This document shows, one piece after another, positions 3,235 through 50,989 of a stretch of 64,000 nucleotides of DNA. The stretch is from Bacteroidia bacterium (lineage in GTDB: Bacteria > Bacteroidota > Bacteroidia > B-17B0 > Aurantibacillaceae). Each line of letters opens with the position of its first letter. Within the stretch, counting starts at the first letter, position 1. The position numbers and the translations under genes are program-made. The DNA lies in NCBI GenBank assembly GCA_038206945.1, contig JBBRAG010000015.1, positions 8,617 to 72,616 of the forward strand, given 5' to 3'. The notes beneath the pieces were generated by a model that saw only the letters and a program-made list of their open reading frames with translations, was not told the origin of the DNA and made no database searches.

Positions 3235-4167
3235 ATGATAACCCATCCTCAATACATTCAAAAGTACACAGCTTTAGAATTGCTTGCCAAACAAGTAGTT
3301 GAGGGTTTTATAACAGGCTTGCATAAAAGTCCGTTTCACGGTTTTTCGGTAGAGTTTGCCGAACACAGAATTTATAATCCGGGCGAAAGCACCAAACATA
3401 TTGATTGGAAACTTTACGGACGAAGCGATAAACTTTTTATCAAGCGTTACGAAGAAGAAACTAATCTTCGTTGTCAGTTAGTGATAGATGCTTCTTCATC
3501 TATGTATTATCCGGTAGATGCAAAATTGGATGCGCAAAATCAAAACAATAAAATAAATTTCGCCATACAAAGTGCCGCCGTTCTTTCCGAATTATTATTG
3601 CGACAAAGAGATGCGGTTGGTTTAAGTATCTTTTCGGATAAAATAAATTTTCATTCTAATGCACGCGCCAGCAACACGCAAAAAAAAATGTTGTTTACCG
3701 AATTAGAAAATTTGCAACAACATTATAAGTCTGAAGGTAAGTCGGAAACCCTTGCCGGTAGCCTTTTAGACCAAATTGCAGAGATTGTACACAAGCGTTC
3801 GCTCATTATTATTTTTAGTGATATGTTTGAAGGTTCTGACAACGAAGAAGCCTTGTTTTCTGCACTTCAACATTTAAAACATCGTAAACACGAAGTGCTG
3901 TTGTTTCACGTGCACGATAAAAAAAGTGAATTGGATTTTGATTTTGAAAATCGTCCGTACCATTTTATAGATATGGAAACCGGCGAAGAAATAAAATTAA
4001 ATCCTGCACAAGCCAAAGAAAATTATTTAGCACGCATGACAAGTTACATCAGCAATTTAAAAACTAAATGCGGCCAATACAAAGTAGATTTTATTGATGC
4101 CGATATTTCTGAAGGCTTTGATAAAGTGTTGCACGCATATCTTATAAAAAGAGGCACTATACTTTAG
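3235..4167 (+). CDS. DUF58 domain protein (vWA-like)
   Basis: G.HKSPFHGFSVEFAEHR.Y.PG, IDWK, EEETN, DASSSM motifs. Confidence 0.92.
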   Translation: MITHPQYIQKYTALELLAKQVVEGFITGLHKSPFHGFSVEFAEHRIYNPGESTKHIDWKLYGRSDKLFIKRYEEETNLRCQLVIDASSSMYYPVDAKLDAQNQNNKINFAIQSAAVLSELLLRQRDAVGLSIFSDKINFHSNARASNTQKKMLFTELENLQQHYKSEGKSETLAGSLLDQIAEIVHKRSLIIIFSDMFEGSDNEEALFSALQHLKHRKHEVLLFHVHDKKSELDFDFENRPYHFIDMETGEEIKLNPAQAKENYLARMTSYISNLKTKCGQYKVDFIDADISEGFDKVLHAYLIKRGTIL

Positions 4168-4171
4168 TTGA

Positions 4172-4834
4172 ATGACTAAGCAAGAACGATACGATCACAT
4201 CTTAAATTACTTTCAGCAAAACGATTCTCCGGCTGAAACGGAATTGCATTATGAAGATCCGTTTCAGTTATTAGTATCTGTTATTCTCTCGGCACAGTGC
4301 ACAGATAAGCGCGTTAACATGGTTACGCCAAAATTATTTAAAGATTACCCAACGGCGGAAGATTTAGCCGTAAGCACCCCCGAAATTATTTTTAATTACA
4401 TACGCAGCATTAGTTACCCAAACAATAAAGCAAAACATTTAGTTGGCATGGCGCAAATGCTGGTAAATAATTTTAAGAGTAAAATACCCAAAGAAGTTTA
4501 TGAGCTTGTAAAACTGCCGGGCGTGGGCAGAAAAACAGCCAATGTAATTGCATCCGTTGTGTATGATAAACCTACCATGGCGGTAGATACACATGTGTTT
4601 AGAGTTTCGGCACGATTGGGTTTAACAACCAATGCAAAAAATGTGTTGCAGGCCGAAAAACAATTGATTAAATTTATACCTGAAGAGCTGGTTCCAAAAG
4701 CGCATCATTGGTTAATTTTGCACGGAAGATATATTTGTTTGGCAAGAAAACCCTTATGTGAAAAATGTCCGCTAACGCAATGGTGCAAATATTTTCAAAT
4801 TAAAATATTAAAGAAAAATGATCCAGCGATATAA
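4172..4834 (+). CDS. nth: endonuclease III
   Basis: LSAQCTDKRVN, HhH LPGVGRKTA, VDTHV, C-x6-C-x2-C-x5-C 4Fe-4S motif. Confidence 0.96.
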   Translation: MTKQERYDHILNYFQQNDSPAETELHYEDPFQLLVSVILSAQCTDKRVNMVTPKLFKDYPTAEDLAVSTPEIIFNYIRSISYPNNKAKHLVGMAQMLVNNFKSKIPKEVYELVKLPGVGRKTANVIASVVYDKPTMAVDTHVFRVSARLGLTTNAKNVLQAEKQLIKFIPEELVPKAHHWLILHGRYICLARKPLCEKCPLTQWCKYFQIKILKKNDPAI

Positions 4835-4901
4835 AATACTTTTGCTATTATTATTTGCAAGCTTTATAGATAATGGTTGTGCGGTAGAGAAAGCTTATTG
4901 T

Positions 4902-4909
4902 TACATTTG
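4902..4909 (+). promoter_or_regulatory. Bacteroidota sigma70 -7 box TACATTTG
   Basis: Matches TAnnTTTG, 12 nt before ATG 4922. Confidence 0.6.
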
Positions 4910-4921
4910 TACCAGAAAATA

Positions 4922-5044
4922 ATGCGTAAACGATATAAACTTATACTTGTATTACTAACTACATCTTTACTGATGAACAGCTGTTTTATCTTTCGCCCCA
5001 AGAACAAGTGCGATACTTGCCCGCATTTTGGTAAGAAGCATTAA
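4922..5044 (+). CDS. small 40-aa putative lipoprotein (not in ORF track)
   Basis: MRKRYKLILVLLTTSLLMNS-CFIFRPKNKCDTCPHFGKKH*: basic N-region, hydrophobic core, lipobox Cys, upstream -7 box. Confidence 0.7.
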   Translation: MRKRYKLILVLLTTSLLMNSCFIFRPKNKCDTCPHFGKKH

Positions 5045-5057
5045 TTTATACAGGCGT

Positions 5058-6920
5058 ATGTTTCTAAAATTAAAAAACATAAAGCCGCAGCATTTTTTTC
5101 TTTTTGTTGCTATAAGTTTCTTTCTTCTATTAAATATAGTAACACCTCCACTACAAGCTCCTGATGAATTCAATCATTTTTATAAAGCGTATCAAATAGC
5201 CGGCGGACAATTTTTACCCAACAAAGTTGATAACCGCCTGGGTGGCGAAATTCCCAACAGTATTAATAAGTTTGTTTTTTCTTTTGATAATGCCGCTACC
5301 GAAAAACGCCTGACTTTATCAAAACAAGATGTTTTTAACGGCTTTCATATTACCTACACACAAGATACTGCAAGGTTTAAAGATTTTCCTAATACATCTT
5401 ACTACTCTCCCATCTCTTACCTACCGCAAGCAATCTCAATTTTTATTACAAAACAATTTACCTGCTCGGTTGCTACCATGTATTATGCAGCCCGGTTATT
5501 TGCTTTTTTACTTTGGCTTATTTGCATGTTTTTTGTTATTAAAACAGTACCCGTATATAAATGGTTGGTTACGTTTATATGCTTACTACCCATGAATATT
5601 TATATTACAAATTCTTTCAGCGCTGATACAGTAAGTAATATTTTATCCTTTTTATTTATCGCTTTAATCTTAAAGCATACTTTTTCTGAAACTCCATTTC
5701 GGGTAAAAGATCTAATTCCATTGCTTATAATAATCTCCTTGCTTGCGCTGGCAAAAGTTGTGTATGCAGCGTTAGTATTATCTTTTTTGATCATTCCTTT
5801 TACAAAGTTTAAAAGCAAATCTTTTTATTTTTCCTCTATCGGAATTTTATTTTTTGTTGCCTTTATTGTTTCCTATTACTGGTCATCGGTAGTTATGAGC
5901 CATTATACACCTTACGTAGATTATAACCCAGAACACCGAGATTGGATATGCTTAACACACAATTCCAACTACTACGAACAAAAGGCATATATTTTAAGTA
6001 ATGGTACATATTTTTTAAAAGTAATTTATCATTCTCTTTTTAATCATCCAAACACCTACTTAGATGGTTACATTGGTGTGTTTGGTAACAGTGATATACC
6101 CTTGCCTAATTTATTATTATGGACGAGTTATGCCGTACTTATTTTTATCGCACTCTTTGAAAAAAATAATTTTTCTTTCACACTTCAACAGAAACTTATT
6201 TTAGTAGTCGCCTCGTTTGCGGCCTTTGTTTTGCTACTACTTTCTCAACATTTAACCTGGGATGCCGTGGGCGAAGGCGTTGTTGATGTAGTGCAGGGCC
6301 GTTATCTTATTCCTTTGTTTCCATTTGTCTTTTTTGCTATGGGTGGTTTTAAATTAAAAGCTACTATTAATTATGTATACATAATTTTTTTACTGCTATT
6401 TGTTCTATATGGTTTTAGTTTAGATAGAATTAGACACAGGTATTTTGTTGGAGATTGCATAAAAGAAACCACTTTTACCTGCGATGCAGAAACAACTAAT
6501 CCGGAAGGCCAATTTATAACATCAAACGCAAACATTTTTTTGCCCGGTGGAAACATGAGAACCGATTCTATTTCGCATAGCGGAAATTTTTCTCTTTTAC
6601 TATCTGAACAAGCACCCTATGGATTTACCTATAAATTTAATGATTTACATGCAGGTGATCTATTAGAGATTTCTTTATGGCAAAAAGGACCAGCAGCCGT
6701 ATTGGTTATAGCAAGTGATGGCAATGCTTGCGAAAAAATTTACTTTTCCGCCAATACCGTTTTTTATTATGATGCTAAAGGATGGGGCAGGTTATACAAT
6801 AAATTTTTAATGACTCAGAAATGTAAAAATGTCAAGCTTGCGTTTTATGCCTGGAACCCCGGTAAAGAAAAAATATACGTGGATGATTTAAAGTTTAGTA
6901 TTAAAAGATTTAAACAATAA
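5058..6920 (+). CDS. DUF2142-type polytopic membrane protein (GT-C-like) with C-terminal soluble CBM-like domain
   Basis: PPLQAPDE..H motif, multiple TM helices, QGRY..P motif. Start moved from 5028 to ATG 5058 because 5028 overlaps the small lipoprotein ORF. Confidence 0.75.
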   Translation: MFLKLKNIKPQHFFLFVAISFFLLLNIVTPPLQAPDEFNHFYKAYQIAGGQFLPNKVDNRLGGEIPNSINKFVFSFDNAATEKRLTLSKQDVFNGFHITYTQDTARFKDFPNTSYYSPISYLPQAISIFITKQFTCSVATMYYAARLFAFLLWLICMFFVIKTVPVYKWLVTFICLLPMNIYITNSFSADTVSNILSFLFIALILKHTFSETPFRVKDLIPLLIIISLLALAKVVYAALVLSFLIIPFTKFKSKSFYFSSIGILFFVAFIVSYYWSSVVMSHYTPYVDYNPEHRDWICLTHNSNYYEQKAYILSNGTYFLKVIYHSLFNHPNTYLDGYIGVFGNSDIPLPNLLLWTSYAVLIFIALFEKNNFSFTLQQKLILVVASFAAFVLLLLSQHLTWDAVGEGVVDVVQGRYLIPLFPFVFFAMGGFKLKATINYVYIIFLLLFVLYGFSLDRIRHRYFVGDCIKETTFTCDAETTNPEGQFITSNANIFLPGGNMRTDSISHSGNFSLLLSEQAPYGFTYKFNDLHAGDLLEISLWQKGPAAVLVIASDGNACEKIYFSANTVFYYDAKGWGRLYNKFLMTQKCKNVKLAFYAWNPGKEKIYVDDLKFSIKRFKQ

Positions 6921-7038
6921 TATCCATGTTAATTATATTAAAAACATTACCGTTGTATCGTAATTTTTTGTACTGGTTTCTTTACCAACAGTTGTGCTAA
7001 TAAAATAAATACCTGCTGTTAAGTTTTACAAAGCTATT

Positions 7039-7392
7039 TTAATTATAATAAGCAAACATTTTGTTTACTTTACCTTGCTCATTAAAAAACATGACTTCTA
7101 TTGCCATCTTATTCATAACTGATTTGTAATATAAGGCTACAGAATTTACACCCTCTGTTACTTCTATTAATTCAAAATGAAGGTCGGGTATTTTGTGAAG
7201 TGCTTTTGCCCAATAATCAGAGACAGATTGTTTTCCTTTTAAGGTACCGCTATCAATACCCATAACCACTTTTATCATAGGTGTGGTAATTTCAATATCT
7301 TCAGCATAATGGTTAAGTATTTGGATAAGATCATGAGAGTTCCAGGATGATACCCACACTCGCGCAAATTTTTGTGCATCCATTTTATACAA
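7039..7392 (-). CDS. SnoaL-like / NTF2-fold protein
   Basis: W..SWNSHDL..IL.HYAED, G.L.GK..V..YW pattern. Confidence 0.85.
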   Translation of the reverse strand: MYKMDAQKFARVWVSSWNSHDLIQILNHYAEDIEITTPMIKVVMGIDSGTLKGKQSVSDYWAKALHKIPDLHFELIEVTEGVNSVALYYKSVMNKMAIEVMFFNEQGKVNKMFAYYN

Positions 7393-7401
7393 TCTTATTA
7401 A

Positions 7402-8034
7402 TTATACTTCTTTCTTATTCCCTTTTAAAACGCCCAGTATAACCGGTACAACAGAGATGAAAATAATGCCAAGGCAAACTAAATCTATATGCTTTCTGAT
7501 AAATTCTACGTTGCCTAATAAAAAACCTGCCATGGTTAAAGAGAAAATCCACAATGCGCCACCTAACACATCAAAGCTGAAGAATTTTTTATAATTCATT
7601 TGTGCAATGCCCGCTGCAAAAGGTGCAAAGGTTCTTACAAAAGGTACAAAGCGCGCCATAATGATGGCTTTGGTACCATATTTTTCATAGAACAAATGGG
7701 TTTTAGCTAAATATTCTTCTTTTACAATAGGTTTACCTTTTAATTTTAATTGAAAAACTTTCAAGCCAACTGTCCTTCCAATCCAGTAGTTAACATTATC
7801 ACCTAAAATAGCGGCAATAAACAGCAGACTTAAAATATAAGATAGATCTAAATGTCCGGTGCGGGCAAATAAACCTGCTGTAAATAACAACGAATCGCCG
7901 GGAAGAAATGGCATAGCCACTAAACCGGTTTCAATAAAAATTACTAAAAATAAAATAACGTAAATAGATGTGCCATAGTTGGCAAACAACCAATCAAAAT
8001 CTAAATGAAATACATGTGTAAATAATTCTACCAT
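7402..8034 (-). CDS. DedA (VTT domain) family membrane protein
   Basis: IFIETGL..PFLPGDSLLF.AG, GDNVNYWIGR, ARFVPFVRTF. Confidence 0.93.
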   Translation of the reverse strand: MVELFTHVFHLDFDWLFANYGTSIYVILFLVIFIETGLVAMPFLPGDSLLFTAGLFARTGHLDLSYILSLLFIAAILGDNVNYWIGRTVGLKVFQLKLKGKPIVKEEYLAKTHLFYEKYGTKAIIMARFVPFVRTFAPFAAGIAQMNYKKFFSFDVLGGALWIFSLTMAGFLLGNVEFIRKHIDLVCLGIIFISVVPVILGVLKGNKKEV

Positions 8035-14557: not shown

Positions 14558-14585
14558 AAAGCCTCACAAAAGTGGGGCTTTTTTT
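14558..14585 (+). terminator. intrinsic terminator
   Basis: AAAGCCTCAC-AAAA-GTGGGGCTTT followed by a T run. Confidence 0.85.
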
Positions 14586-14599
14586 ATTACGTGTTTTTT

Positions 14600-14737
14600 G
14601 GGCGTTCCGGCTATTTATTCATTCATCTTTATTCTTAAAATGAAATTCATGAATTTGGAAAATCATTTCAGCCGGCGGGCTTTTTGCAGTAAAGCTTTTT
14701 GGTTACAAAAAGGCTTTCTTGCTGCAATCCCTAACGC
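14600..14737 (+). ncRNA. structured repeat copy 1 (three-way junction; possibly Flavo-1-like)
   Basis: GGGCGTTCCGGCT..AGCCGGCGGGCT..GCAGTAAAGCTTTTTG-GTTA-CAAAAAGGCTTTCTTGC..TCCCTAACGC; homologous to 27529-27684 and 50900-50989. Confidence 0.65.
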
Positions 14738-14775
14738 TTGGCCCCAACTATAAATAATATCTTTTTAAATAAGGT

Positions 14776-18023: not shown

Positions 18024-18053
18024 AGTATTTATCTATTAAAAAGCTGAATTTTG

Positions 18054-18061
18054 TACATTTG
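18054..18061 (+). promoter_or_regulatory. -7 box TACATTTG
   Basis: TAnnTTTG; implies true start at ATG 18084. Confidence 0.55.
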
Positions 18062-18083
18062 CACATTAAAAAATAGTAATCCA

Positions 18084-20732
18084 ATGAAGAAAATTGTTAT
18101 TTCGTTTATATTTCTAACTTTATTAAGCTTATCCGGCAAGGCGCAAACACCTGCCGTTACACAAGATAAAGGCTCTTACAAAAAGAATTTTTTAGAAGGA
18201 AACCTTAACCTAGGGGACAACGAGTTTAAAGAAGCTTTAAAATATTTTTTATACGCGTATAAATATGATTCTACCAACGCTAACATAAATTTTAAAATAG
18301 GCTTTTGTTATCTACAGAATAACAAAAATAAACATTTGGCCGAAAAATATCTTGAAAAAGCGGTTCAAAACGTAACCAAACATTATTTTGATGATGATGC
18401 AAACTTTAAAAAAGCGCCCGTGTTAGCTTATTTTAGCTTAGGTCAATCATACCATTTAGATGGCAAGTTAGATGAGGCCTCAAAGATGTATGACACCTAC
18501 GAATCATTCATAAAAACAAATGATAAAGTAGAACACAAATTAATTCAACACTTTAAATTACAGGTTTTAAACGCTAAACGTATTTTAGGCGCGCCGCTTA
18601 ATGTTACTATTACCAATTTAGGAGATAGTATTAATAGTGAATATCCTGATTACTCGCCGGTAATAACAGCTGATGAGCAGGTTTTGTATTACACTACCCG
18701 CCGACCAAGTACAACGGGCGGAGAAAAATCTGAAGAAGACGGCAAATACTTTGAAGACATTGTTGTTTCTTATAAAGATCTAAATGGTAAATGGAGCAAG
18801 CCAACTCCTATTAGTCCGTTTATCAACACGGGTTCTAACGAAGCAACTGTAAGCTTAACTCCTGATGGGCAAACGCTTATTATTTTTAAAGGGGATGTTG
18901 GGGGTGGAGATCTTTTTTATTCTTCTTATGATGGCAAGGACTGGACCATTCCAACCAAATATGGCTCTAATATTAATACAGCATATTGGGAGCGCCACGC
19001 TTGTTTATCTCGAGACGGGCAAACATTATATTTTGTAAGCGACAGGCCTGGCGGAATGGGTGGATTTGATATTTACCGTTGTGTAAAACTACCAAATGGC
19101 CAGTGGAGTTTGGCCACAAATGTTGGCGCGCCCATTAATACCCCATATGATGAAGATGGGCCGTTTTTAGGAGCTGATGGTGTTACGTTTTACTTTGCTT
19201 CTTCGGGAGATAAATCTATGGGTGGCTTTGACATTATGTTTTCTACCATTGATGAAATGGGCAAATTTTCTGAACCAACCTCTATGGGATCTCCCATAAA
19301 CACCACAGATAATGATGTGTTTTATGTGGCTACACCCGATAATAAACGTTTCTATTTTTCATCGGCACATGAATATACAACCAAAGGCGATCAGCATGGA
19401 AAAAGTTTTGGCGACCAAGACATTTACATGGGTAATGTTGATCTGATAAAAGAAAATCCATTAGCCTTATTTCGCGGAAGATTTACCCCAGGGCCTTGTG
19501 ATAGCTTACCCGATGATCTTTTAGTTATTGTTACTTCGGCTACAAGTGGCGAAGTTATTGGTACTTACCGCCCTCAACGCCGCACGGGTACGTTTAGCGT
19601 AATTATTCCTCCCGGAAGTAAATATAACTTCTCTTACCAGCAAAACGGACAAGAACTCTCTAACGAAGAAGTATATGTACCAGCTGATATTTCTTACGAA
19701 GAGATACAAAAAGCTATCAACTTAAAACCGCTTAAAATTTGTCCGGGCAGTATAACCAGAGATACAAATTATACAAGCAAAATTGCTTTAAATATTTTAG
19801 TGCTTAATAATAAACGCGATAAAAAACCTGTTACAGGTGCAGATATTAAAGTGCTAAGCAAAGGCATAGCAGATTATACGACAAAATCTGATGAGGACGG
19901 CCATCGTAACGGCATAGCGCTTCAGGCAGAAAAAAGCTATGAAATTACCGCAACTTCTAATGGCAAAACAGCTAAACCACTTGTGTTTAATACCATTGGC
20001 ATTAAAAGTAAAACCTACGATAAAACCATCTATATTGAAAAGAATGCAGAAGATGAAATTAATTTTGATTTAGTTATCTCTGTAATGAACAGTAGCAAAC
20101 AACGCAAGCCTATTGCAGGGGCAAATATAAAAGTAACCGGTACAGATGGAACTACATTTAACGGCGTTACTGATGATAGAGGTATTGTAAACGGCATAAC
20201 CCTTAGTGCATCTACCAACTACCAAATATTAGTTGTAAAAGATGGTGTAACCAAAAAAGCGGTAGTATCTACACAAGGCTTGCGTAAAACTAAAACCATA
20301 CAAAAAACAGTTTATATTCAAGGCGCATCTGAAGTGCCTGATAATAGCGAGTTTTCAGGAGACTGCTTTAGTTTCTACTTTAAATATAATATGAATTCGG
20401 TGGATGAAACCGCGCCCGAGTACAAACAGTTTATGGATAAAATTGTTGCTATGAAGGCTGGTGGCGCAAAAATTTCTTTCCATGTAAGCGCTAGTGCATC
20501 TACCGTTCCAACGCATAAATTTAGAAACAACACAGAGCTTGCTAAAATACGAGCCAATCAAACTATAGATAAAATGAAAGGCAGTTTAAAACAACTTGGC
20601 ATTAATGAAGCTGATATAACTATTGTATCTAACAAAGCTAATGTAGGAGGTCCAGCATATAAAGGAGATAAAGATGCTAACGCTTCTACATACGAAAAAT
20701 ATCAGTTTGTAAAAGTTTGTTTATCTAAATAA
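18084..20732 (+). CDS. exported TPR + PD40 propeller + beta-sandwich repeats + atypical OmpA-like protein (PorE-like architecture)
   Basis: Signal peptide, TPRs, repeated N.G..IN....D..P....DG..LYF.S.R.GG.G..DIY, duplicated beta-sandwich, C-terminal N..LA..RA. Confidence 0.8.
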   Translation: MKKIVISFIFLTLLSLSGKAQTPAVTQDKGSYKKNFLEGNLNLGDNEFKEALKYFLYAYKYDSTNANINFKIGFCYLQNNKNKHLAEKYLEKAVQNVTKHYFDDDANFKKAPVLAYFSLGQSYHLDGKLDEASKMYDTYESFIKTNDKVEHKLIQHFKLQVLNAKRILGAPLNVTITNLGDSINSEYPDYSPVITADEQVLYYTTRRPSTTGGEKSEEDGKYFEDIVVSYKDLNGKWSKPTPISPFINTGSNEATVSLTPDGQTLIIFKGDVGGGDLFYSSYDGKDWTIPTKYGSNINTAYWERHACLSRDGQTLYFVSDRPGGMGGFDIYRCVKLPNGQWSLATNVGAPINTPYDEDGPFLGADGVTFYFASSGDKSMGGFDIMFSTIDEMGKFSEPTSMGSPINTTDNDVFYVATPDNKRFYFSSAHEYTTKGDQHGKSFGDQDIYMGNVDLIKENPLALFRGRFTPGPCDSLPDDLLVIVTSATSGEVIGTYRPQRRTGTFSVIIPPGSKYNFSYQQNGQELSNEEVYVPADISYEEIQKAINLKPLKICPGSITRDTNYTSKIALNILVLNNKRDKKPVTGADIKVLSKGIADYTTKSDEDGHRNGIALQAEKSYEITATSNGKTAKPLVFNTIGIKSKTYDKTIYIEKNAEDEINFDLVISVMNSSKQRKPIAGANIKVTGTDGTTFNGVTDDRGIVNGITLSASTNYQILVVKDGVTKKAVVSTQGLRKTKTIQKTVYIQGASEVPDNSEFSGDCFSFYFKYNMNSVDETAPEYKQFMDKIVAMKAGGAKISFHVSASASTVPTHKFRNNTELAKIRANQTIDKMKGSLKQLGINEADITIVSNKANVGGPAYKGDKDANASTYEKYQFVKVCLSK

Positions 20733-26593: not shown

Positions 26594-26896
26594 AGGCTCT
26601 CTGCTAGTGTGGCGTATTCTTATAATACGAATTTCTTTATTTAAAGATTTTACTTGGTACGTAATTCTATAGCTATAAATTATAAATGCTCTAAACTCTT
26701 TGTAAGGATTTTCTTTTAATTTATCTATTTCAAAAATAAGTGCATTTGTTTTTATAGCACCTATTCTTACTAAAACACCTTCTTTTACAATTTTTGGAGC
26801 TTATGTATTTTGTTTGGAAAGAAAATTTAGAATTTCTTTAAAATCATCGAGCGCATTTATGCCCCAAATAATTTTAAATGAAACTTTCTTTACCAT
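26582..26896 (-). pseudogene. RelE/ParE-family toxin with in-frame TAA at codon 32 (26801-26803)
   Basis: Manual translation MVKKVSFKIIWGINALDDFKEILNFLSKQNT*APKIVKE...YSYRITY...IRIIRIRHTSREPLGY*, 104 codons; start overlaps the antitoxin stop. Confidence 0.85.
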
Positions 26897-27120
26897 TTAG
26901 CCAATTCTTTCACTACATCTTGGTGTGTTACAAAATTTCCTTTTTCAATACGGGCAACAGCTTCATTAATTTCTTTATTGTATGGTTTTTTAGAAATTCT
27001 TTTTGTTTCATTATAAATGTTTAAAAGACTTTTTGCCATTTCTAAAAGCAAGGTTTGTTGCTTAGTAGATAGTAAAGGTAAATAATCATCAAATTGTTTT
27101 TTTATTGCAGTAGCTGTCAT
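26890..27120 (-). CDS. putative antitoxin of the RelE/ParE pair
   Basis: 76 aa, C-terminal A.A.IEKG.FVTHQDV pattern, directly upstream of and overlapping the toxin. Confidence 0.7.
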   Translation of the reverse strand: MTATAIKKQFDDYLPLLSTKQQTLLLEMAKSLLNIYNETKRISKKPYNKEINEAVARIEKGNFVTHQDVVKELAKW

Positions 27121-27165
27121 GGCAAAAAATTTAATATTTAAAGGTACTAAAAAACGCTATAAAGC

Positions 27166-27528: not shown

Positions 27529-27684
27529 GCGTTAGGGATGCGGCAAGAAAGCCTTTTGTATAAAGTTTTTTAGCATTTTGCAAAGCAGTAATAAAACCTA
27601 ATATTACAAAAGCTTTACTGCGGGCAGCCCGGCGGCTTATAATATTGCTTCACTTAGTGTAAATAACGAAAAGCCGTAACGCCC
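27529..27684 (-). ncRNA. structured repeat copy 2
   Basis: Plus strand GCGTTAGGGATGCGGCAAGAAAGCCTTTT..AAAAGCTTTACTGCGGGCAGCCCGGCGGCTT..AAGCCGTAACGCCC. Confidence 0.65.
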
Positions 27685-27687
27685 AAA

Positions 27688-47136: not shown

Positions 47137-47227
47137 GTCATTCCGAGCTTGTGTTCGTCATACTGAACTTGTTTCAGCATCTCTTTAGATTCCGAAATAA
47201 ATTCGGAATGACATATGCTCAGGATGA
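47137..47227. repeat. nested REP-like palindromes in nuoM-nuoN spacer
   Basis: GTCATTCCGAGCTTG [GTCATACTGAACTTGTTTCAGCATCT..AGATTCCGAAATAAATTCGGAATGAC] GCTCAGGATGA. Confidence 0.75.
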
Positions 47228-50860: not shown

Positions 50861-50887
50861 GAGATGCTGAAACAAGTTTAGCATGAC
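50861..50887. repeat. solo right arm of GTCATGCTG-type REP
   Basis: GAGATGCTGAAACAAGTTTAGCATGAC, near reverse complement of 47157-47183. Confidence 0.7.
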
Positions 50888-50899
50888 GATAGTGTATTT

Positions 50900-50989
50900 G
50901 CGTTAGGGATGCGGCAAGAAAGCCTTTTTAAGTACTCTTAAAAAGCTTTACTGCGGGCAGCCCGCCGGCAGTAACCTGCCGGAACGCCC
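50900..50989 (-). ncRNA. structured repeat copy 3 (shortest)
   Basis: Plus strand GCGTTAGGGATGCGGCAAGAAAGCCTTTTT..AAAAAGCTTTACTGCGGGCAGCCCGCCGGCAG-TAAC-CTGCCGGAACGCCC. Confidence 0.65.

Follow-up and report, generated by a model that had tools for sequence, protein, structure and literature searches.

Three copies of a structured element in the window

The window, that is, the whole 64-kb stretch of DNA analysed here, contains three copies of a structured element, and the positions and strands that an earlier note had assigned to them are confirmed (Table 1). The genes flanking the three copies are ordinary. Copy 1 lies between the genes of a TPR protein and of a DUF1599 protein, with the stop codon of the convergent gene 38 nt away. 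Copy 2 is flanked by the gene of a 78-aa ATPase_gene1 protein, whose stop codon is 3 nt off, and by the gene of a 105-aa protein, 45 nt off. Copy 3 is flanked by the genes of an M1 peptidase and of an aldehyde dehydrogenase. The distances of 3, 12 and 65 nt to the upstream stop codons had been correctly read, with the qualification that a canonical terminator separates copy 1 from the gene upstream.

On the strand chosen in the earlier note, hereafter named the GGGCGTT strand, each copy reads in the order GGGCGTT, arm 1, C, arm 2 (GGGCT...ATCCC) and TAACGC. The segments GGGCGTT, CGGGCT, GCAGTAAAGCTTTT, AAAAGGCTTTCTTGC and TCCCTAACGC are common to all three copies, and the 15-mer AAAAGGCTTTCTTGC has exactly three exact occurrences in the 64-kb window, one per copy. 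The closing stem and the two hairpin arms are also common to the three copies, while the tips of the arms differ in length. A covariance model built on 22 family members, one of the checks proposed for the element, recovered the three window copies with scores of 105-112 bits as well as further copies in a sister MAG, and detected no fourth copy in the 64-kb window. The shared core and the kept closing stem GCGTT/AACGC are thus supported by the sequence, by the model scores and by the MFE folds. Overall, the three stretches are confirmed as real copies of a structured multi-copy element whose junction core is conserved and whose arms vary.

A role of the element as an intrinsic terminator was rejected, since no terminator-like site is found in or at the end of any window copy, nor is a T run of terminator type seen after the three copies, whichever strand is read. 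A reading as a Bacteroidota promoter (TAnnTTTG) was ruled out on sequence.

Table 1 Features of the element and of associated hairpins in the window
Feature	Position	Strand	Remarks
Copy 1, full unit including conserved 5' TTT	14597..14737	+	model score 111.6 bits
Copy 1, unit without 5' TTT	14600-14737	+	sequence read
Copy 1, closing stem	GCGTT 14602-14606 paired with AACGC 14733-14737	+	MFE fold
Copy 1, arm 1	14607..14675	+	stem CCGGCT/AGCCGG, loop 57 nt
Copy 1, arm 2 (GGGCT...ATCCC)	14677..14731	+	minus strand is the region of the Rfam Flavo-1 match
Copy 2, full unit with 5' TTT	27529..27687	-	model score 110.5 bits
Copy 2, unit without 5' TTT	27529-27684	-	sequence read
Copy 2, parts	GGGCGTT 27684-27678; arm 1 27677-27632; arm 2 27630-27535; AACGC 27533-27529	-	
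Copy 3, minimal form	50900..50989	-	model score 105.2 bits
Copy 3, parts	GGGCGTT 50989-50983; arm 1 50982-50965; arm 2 50963-50906; AACGC 50904-50900	-	
Copy 3, arm 1 sequence	50982-50965	-	CCGGCAG-GTTA-CTGCCGG
Intrinsic terminator of the upstream TPR gene	hairpin 14558-14581 and T run, to 14587	+	between the TPR gene and copy 1; outside the element
Stand-alone CGTC-tagged REP-type hairpin	50861-50889	-	CGTC-ATGCTAAA-CTTG-TTTCAGCAT-CTC; 12 nt downstream of copy 3
Stand-alone CGTC-tagged REP-type hairpin	47155-47183	+	form CGTC-ATxCTGAA-CTTG-TTCAGCAT-CTC, as at 50861-50889

Copies in a sister genome and abundance in metagenomes

Scanning one genome per species with the 19-mer AAAAGGCTTTCTTGCYGCA returned 39 loci. 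Whole elements were found at 23 of them, all from one fragmented MAG (JBDTJJ01) labelled Bacteroidia. On the contigs of the same MAG, the covariance model identified five further, diverged copies, which brings the count in this MAG to at least 28. The MAG is closely related to the window organism, with proteins 80-97% identical and several syntenic contigs. Two of its contigs (L019 and L033) carry the same genes at about 97% identity, so that the bin mixes two strains. One MAG contig (L004) also contains a cobalamin riboswitch (3378-3581 (-), 92.4 bits), which is unrelated to the element.

We then used the sediment metagenome in which 98% of the window's words occur and which is taken as its source. 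The summed contig depth of the core, relative to that of the unique flanks, is about 70-120x at copies 2 and 3 and about 11x at copy 1; this depth pools all contigs, including those of other organisms, and is an indicator of abundance rather than a copy number. Contigs in this metagenome break or end within the element, and an exact-protein look-up of the flanking genes gave one contig, itself ending inside the element. Taken together, the contig depth and the number of copies in the MAG point to tens to hundreds of copies per genome, which lends indirect support to the earlier expectation of many copies genome-wide. An exact pattern of the 3' half had no matches in JGI metagenomes; the sub-family of the window is confined to the window's lineage.

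A wider family with the same frame

When only the frame was retained (GGGCGTK, 8-38 nt, CGGGCT, 35-65 nt, ATCCCTMACGC), the pattern was found on at least 120 metagenome contigs, in at least 125 elements. The samples behind the contigs, among the matches listed, are gut, compost, soil, freshwater and marine. On the GGGCGTT strand, the conserved unit reads TTT-GGGCGT(T/G), arm 1, C, arm 2, T-(A/C)ACGC. Among the matches listed, the 5' flank is TTT in 74-83% of the elements and the 3' flank is conserved at position +1 only; no conserved promoter or terminator surrounds the unit in these matches, the TTT being present on one side only. Sub-family bursts within genomes are also observed among the listed matches (e.g. 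L047 and L052).

Two kinds of candidates were set aside. Four matches fell on viral contigs; three of these belong to a single sample series, and the one examined (L041) lacks the rest of the element, so that they look like chance matches. In Mucilaginibacter phyllosphaerae (L018 2189-2287 (-)), both family ends are present (GGGCGTT...CCCCTAACGC), but the interior differs, does not fold to the model and has no Rfam match. This stretch may be a decayed relative.

Fold and covariation

On either strand, the MFE folds of all three window copies contain the closing stem and two arms. For copy 3, the MFE is -39.5 kcal/mol (z = -3.3) on the GGGCGTT strand and -41.5 kcal/mol (z = -4.2) on the opposite strand. 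Within the lineage, variation is sufficient for a covariation test in arm 1 only. In the 22 lineage copies, three arm-1 pairs change on both sides (GC/UA/CG/AU; 16 cells), which 0 of 500 shuffles reach. With 30 copies, eight pairs change on both sides, in an alignment fitted to the model, which favours structure. The covariation of arm 1 noticed in the earlier note is hence confirmed.

In the wide family, the K/M pair of the closing stem is T-A in 88 and G-C in 37 of 125 elements among the matches listed, with 0 discordant cases; the search pattern had permitted all four K/M combinations. Arm 1 has 104 distinct sequences in 122 elements among these matches, and it forms a hairpin in 107 of the 122 listed as compared to 38% of shuffled sequences. 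In arm 2, positions were counted from the two fixed ends, without alignment. Among the matches listed, position 6 is TA in 52 elements, AT in 45, GC in 12 and CG in 5, and several pair types also occur at positions 11 and 17. Positions 4, 7, 9, 12 and 14 carry conserved mismatches, pyrimidine-pyrimidine on the GGGCGTT strand and purine-purine on the opposite strand, on which Rfam lists the Flavo-1 motif (hereafter the Rfam strand). Arm 1 is thus a short hairpin of free sequence and arm 2 a long one, built of Watson-Crick pairs and conserved mismatches in alternation. Overall, the three-way fold is backed by covariation in all three helices.

Relation to the Flavo-1 RNA motif

The element had been said, in the earlier note, to resemble the Flavo-1 RNA motif. 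Flavo-1 (RF01705) has been listed in Rfam since 2010 with the type label 'Gene; sRNA'; its original seed alignment is that of Weinberg et al. 2010 (PMC2864571, supplementary files), who rated it a likely RNA. The proposed Rfam scan of the window gave no match at the gathering threshold. At a permissive threshold, Flavo-1 matched copy 1 (26.5 bits, 14753..14669 (-)), and copy 3 had no Flavo-1 match at E up to 10; for these two copies, the best score of 26.5 bits is thus below the gathering cut-off of 42 bits. In the sister MAG, 11 of the 11 copies tested have sub-threshold RF01705 matches (29-38.5 bits). In copy 1 and in the 11 MAG copies, the match is always on the strand opposite to the GGGCGTT strand and always covers arm 2 only. 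Among 20 metagenome sister elements, taken from loci of a full-unit pattern search, eight pass the cut-off (44.5-57.4 bits), at the same place and on the same opposite strand.

Direct comparison with the 2010 seed alignment assigns the window copies to its 'GCGUUAGGGAU...AGCCCGAC' subclass, named type A here. Type-A seed rows (PMC2864571) start with GCGU(U/G)AGGGAU and end with AGCCCGAC; on the complementary strand, arm 2 of the window copies has exactly this sequence. The hairpin ends of these rows and their ladder of pairs and mismatches are present in window arm 2, and the ladder is also seen, without alignment, in 122 elements among the matches listed. In each of the five type-A rows examined with their flanks, a small hairpin follows, which is arm 1, and then (A/C)ACGCCC, which is the closing stem. 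In the Flavo-1 alignment file, 21 GCGUG and 27 GCGUU starts stand against 22 CACGCCC and 41 AACGCCC. The trait of Flavo-1 of occurring in Bacteroidota with many copies per genome is also found here, in a sister MAG labelled Bacteroidia with at least 28 copies.

Arm 2 is the Flavo-1 hairpin, with a common start GCGUUAGGGAUUGCAGC and a common end AAAGCCCGAC on the Rfam strand. Both have the same ladder of pairs and mismatches, a variable tip and the same phylum, and the seed flanks contain a second hairpin and the closing stem. On the other hand, the Rfam model has 76 positions, contains neither arm 1 nor the closing stem, describes the complement of the GGGCGTT strand and is mostly made of a second subclass (UAGCC...CCGAU...GCGGGA). 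The window copies also differ in scoring at most 26.5 bits against a cut-off of 42 and in having lineage-specific modules in their arm tips. Their low scores are explained by a model that represents one arm and is dominated by the second subclass (UAGCC...CCGAU). The link to Flavo-1 was therefore right as to relatedness, given the sub-threshold matches, the type-A homology and the eight of 20 sister elements above the cut-off, with two corrections: RF01705 covers arm 2 only and reads the opposite strand. The three-way junction is thus the true full unit of the type-A Flavo-1 subclass, the catalogued motif being one of its arms. The copies are members of a known family that is catalogued in part and on the other strand as Flavo-1.

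Arm modules and nested small repeats

In the window lineage, the frame is nearly invariant and the arm tips occur in a few recurring forms; the arms, described earlier as freely variable, are in this lineage built from few recurring modules. Short tips of both arms end with the same G-RNTA-C loop. In many sister-MAG copies, long arm-1 tips carry a hairpin CGTC-AT...AT-CT. Long arm-2 tips carry a module of about 55 nt (TTTAGCTCAT...TTGCTTCGCAGAATGCTGAAAAAGCATTT, named module L), which is located in arm 1 instead of arm 2 in copy 1 and in the MAG element of L028 (5689-5843). CGTC-tagged REPs, a class without a known transposase, have an architecture described by Di Nocera et al. 2013 (PMC3733652). 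The arm-1 hairpins and the stand-alone hairpins of Table 1 share with them the CGTC tag, a stem starting with AT, a loop of 4-5 nt and a short tail. These REPs are passengers or neighbours of the element, whose own ends are GCGTT and not CGTC.

Comparison of the near-identical strain contigs L019 and L033 showed an element that differs only by a 53-nt arm-2 module. As the module stands in place of a 5-nt loop instead of being cleanly inserted, exchange between copies fits better than simple insertion.

Gene context and strand

In the window lineage, the element is sense in seven and antisense in three co-directional gene pairs, with 8-9 copies between convergent genes and one between divergent genes. 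Many copies start 5-16 nt from a stop codon, and 14 of the 26 copies of the window and the sister MAG start no more than 30 nt past a same-strand stop codon, a distance of 5 nt being frequent. In a few MAG copies (e.g. L010 3720-3851), the upstream stop codon is partly made of the first base of the element (TA|G). MAG copies between convergent genes fill the whole spacer, with 1-7 nt left to both stop codons.

In the 125 elements of the wide family, co-directional pairs are 13 sense and 18 antisense among the matches listed, with 10 further elements between convergent and 7 between divergent genes (ORFs were called crudely). Orientation relative to genes is random in the wide family. The earlier observation of a sense element just 3' of a gene thus stands for the three window copies and is not a family property. 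In addition, a MAG copy (L030) lies behind a normal terminator, as copy 1 does. Neighbours in the wide family are assorted housekeeping genes: a Pfam scan of 132 neighbouring proteins, among the matches listed, gave 137 families, none seen more than three times, and no enriched neighbour gene.

Evidence as to the strand points both ways, as wobble pairs in the window lineage favour the GGGCGTT strand 14 to 3, whereas the Rfam strand folds better in 105 of 122 wide-family elements among the matches listed and carries the purine-purine mismatches. In the transcriptome of F. psychrophilum, Flavo-1 matches are found sense, antisense and outside transcripts (PMC9723704).

Turnover and search for a partner gene

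The orthologue of copy 2 at MAG locus L001 keeps the core and the 3' flank and has different arms, and synteny in L001 stops at the 5' border of the element. A further MAG element lies behind the terminator of the orthologue of the window gene at 18051-20732; none is present at that place in the window. At locus L033 (4748-4997), the element is 28 nt upstream of the start of the homologue of the window gene at 4172-4831, which is inverted in the MAG, and thus at a rearrangement border. In the corresponding window region (4835-7401), the genes at 5028-6920 and 7039-7392, located between 4172-4831 and 7405-8034, are unmatched on the MAG contigs between the homologues of these two flanking genes.

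Beside copy 2, uvrC and the gene of the 105-aa protein are 8 nt apart in the MAG (L001 1138-1146), and the window has at this place (26594-27165) a stretch of about 570 nt with a RelE/ParE-like pair. The absence of this stretch from L001 makes the pair an insertion in, or a loss from, one lineage.

Reads and contigs of three metagenomes showed no whole-element skip or empty site at the three window loci; the only skips seen there are joints derived from other copies whose arm-2 tips are shorter. These three metagenomes yielded neither a precise empty site nor a target duplication at the window copies. A linked HUH/TnpA gene, proposed earlier as a check, was searched for with tblastn and in the Pfam families of the neighbours, and none was found. 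IS608 TnpA and E. coli RAYT probes (approximate sequences) had no Y1/HUH match in the window, in the 39 loci or in 726 kb of metagenome loci, about 1 Mb of DNA in total. Of the proposed mobile non-autonomous element, a dispersed non-autonomous repeat is retained as the best reading, and neither a linked transposase nor an empty site was found in these searches.

Discussion

A close parallel is provided by the REP/BIME/REPIN sequences of Proteobacteria, which are associated with RAYT (TnpA-REP) transposases. Like the element, they are short, high-copy, imperfectly palindromic, intergenic in the core genome and frequently close to the ends of genes; they also occur in mosaics with other motifs and at the borders of rearrangements. 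However, the element has no 5' GT[AG]G tag, its ends being TTT-GGGCGTK and MACGC, and the approximate probes found no RAYT gene near any copy. Furthermore, it forms a three-way junction, whereas a REP is a single hairpin or a hairpin dimer. The REPs of the Bacteroidetes-specific RAYT subclass 2.6 (PMC6006769) were also considered and have no resemblance to it.

Miniature elements derived from IS200/IS605 (PATEs) likewise have two sub-terminal hairpins, a conserved short sequence on the 5' side only (here TTT) and no usual terminal inverted repeats, and they lack a target duplication, of which none was recovered here either. In contrast to PATEs, no TnpA/TnpB relative was seen near the element, no excision or empty sites were observed, and there is pairing between its two ends, unlike those of IS200/IS605. 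A fixed frame with interchangeable inner modules, whose presence varies between strains, is likewise seen in BOX elements of Streptococcus pneumoniae. Their sequences and hosts are unrelated, and their modules are arranged in tandem rather than inside hairpin tips. Integron attC sites have R'' (RYYYAAC) on the 5' side and R' (GTTRRRY) on the 3' side, one site per cassette, in a single orientation. An attC site was rejected, as the element has its GTT end 5' and its AAC end 3' on both strands and a random orientation with respect to genes.

The element belongs to a Bacteroidota-wide family, the full-length form of Flavo-1, and we consider it probable, if by no means settled, that it is a REP/BIME-like dispersed repeat. 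The family identity and the three-way fold are established, many copies are present in a close MAG and many contigs of the source metagenome contain the core. The copies are intergenic in the core genome, without a linked gene, and whole arm modules are replaced between near-identical strains. A REP/BIME-like repeat fits best with the many copies, the intergenic core-genome sites, the absence of an orientation rule and of a linked gene, as well as with sub-family bursts, module exchange and the rearrangement borders at copies. Such a repeat would act as DNA, like REP/BIME, probably as a single-stranded hairpin. A putative trans-acting protein would recognise and spread it via the invariant junction core and the mismatch pattern. 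We infer the mode of spread; an enzyme acting on single-stranded DNA would fit the asymmetric TTT flank and the two sub-terminal hairpins. The core would be kept uniform, and the arms shuffled, by recombination or gene conversion among copies. In the window lineage, arm tips would be landing sites for, or be exchanged with, CGTC-tagged REP hairpins and the module of about 55 nt. Effects on neighbouring mRNAs, such as 3'-end protection, would probably be incidental.

Several points speak against a repeat. Conservation of the core and of the mismatch pattern across the phylum is unusual for a selfish repeat, and a host function, as RNA or as DNA, could be equally possible. No transposase or partner was found with the approximate probes in about 1 Mb, no empty site was seen, and copies of the lineage are preferentially located at the 3' ends of genes. 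Given how widely the phylum conserves the junction and the mismatch ladder, two kinds of host function stay under consideration, a DNA-binding site and an RNA. As DNA, the element could be a site maintained by the host for chromosome organisation instead of its own spread, with a nucleoid, topoisomerase or recombination protein binding to its cruciform or hairpin; BIMEs, for instance, are bound by IHF and gyrase. Such a site would agree with the phylum-wide core and mismatch pattern, with the random orientation and the lack of a linked mobility gene, and with the orthologous copy retained in two lineages while its arms diverged. We nevertheless regard it as unlikely: no partner protein is known, presence or absence differs between close relatives, module swaps resemble repeat turnover, and copy density together with sub-family bursts within genomes (e.g. 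L047 and L052) resembles amplification.

As RNA, the element might be a cis-acting 3'-UTR module, as the earlier note proposed, whose co-transcribed fold blocks 3'-to-5' exonucleases or sets a processing or termination site; REP hairpins protect or process the 3' ends of some E. coli mRNAs. The window lineage offers some support, with 14 of 26 copies at most 30 nt from a same-strand stop codon (often 5 nt), copies 2 and 3 between co-directional genes that have no other terminator, and the 14 to 3 ratio of wobble pairs. Nonetheless, random orientation in the wide family (13 sense, 18 antisense, 7 between divergent genes among the matches listed) argues against a 3'-UTR role, and the normal terminators that precede copy 1 and L030 make it improbable as a general function. 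Moreover, the element lacks a trailing terminator-like T run on both strands, folding is better on the Rfam strand in 105 of 122 elements among the matches listed, and Flavo-1 matches in F. psychrophilum are not tied to transcripts (PMC9723704). We rate the module as no likelier than a host DNA site; it may be the weakest of the general explanations, though it may occur as a side effect in the window lineage. Independently transcribed small RNAs from the Rfam strand, as implied by the Rfam label 'Gene; sRNA', are still less probable. They would account for the strong covariation, for conserved purine-purine mismatches, which are typical of folded RNA, and for the greater stability of the Rfam strand, and Weinberg et al. 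judged the motif a likely RNA (PMC2864571). However, genomes would contain tens to hundreds of copies, judging by contig depth and by the MAG, the unit has no conserved promoter or terminator but only TTT on one side, just 1-10 nt separate copies from the stop codons between which they lie, and many Flavo-1 matches lie outside transcribed regions (PMC9723704).

Returning to the REP/BIME-like repeat, a bolder extension can be put forward, tentatively and with more doubt than belief. The Flavo-1 arm within its larger junction would be the Bacteroidota's own REP-like system, in which a putative phylum-wide protein reads the junction and the purine-purine ladder on a single strand of DNA or RNA, and other small repeats land and nest in the two hairpin tips. 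The partner need not be a classical RAYT.

What is new here is that the catalogued Flavo-1 hairpin belongs to a larger unit, which also comprises a closing stem and another arm, and that the family behaves as a dispersed repeat and not as a gene, its tips hosting other repeats in the window lineage. Many family members escape the current Rfam model. A full-length model would improve the annotation of Bacteroidota, explain many breaks in metagenome assemblies and prevent the annotation of such loci as small RNAs or spurious ORFs. In a search for the putative protein that recognises the element, the junction core of either strand offers a defined bait. For the window, the three copies are to be read as repeats, not as regulators specific to their neighbouring genes.
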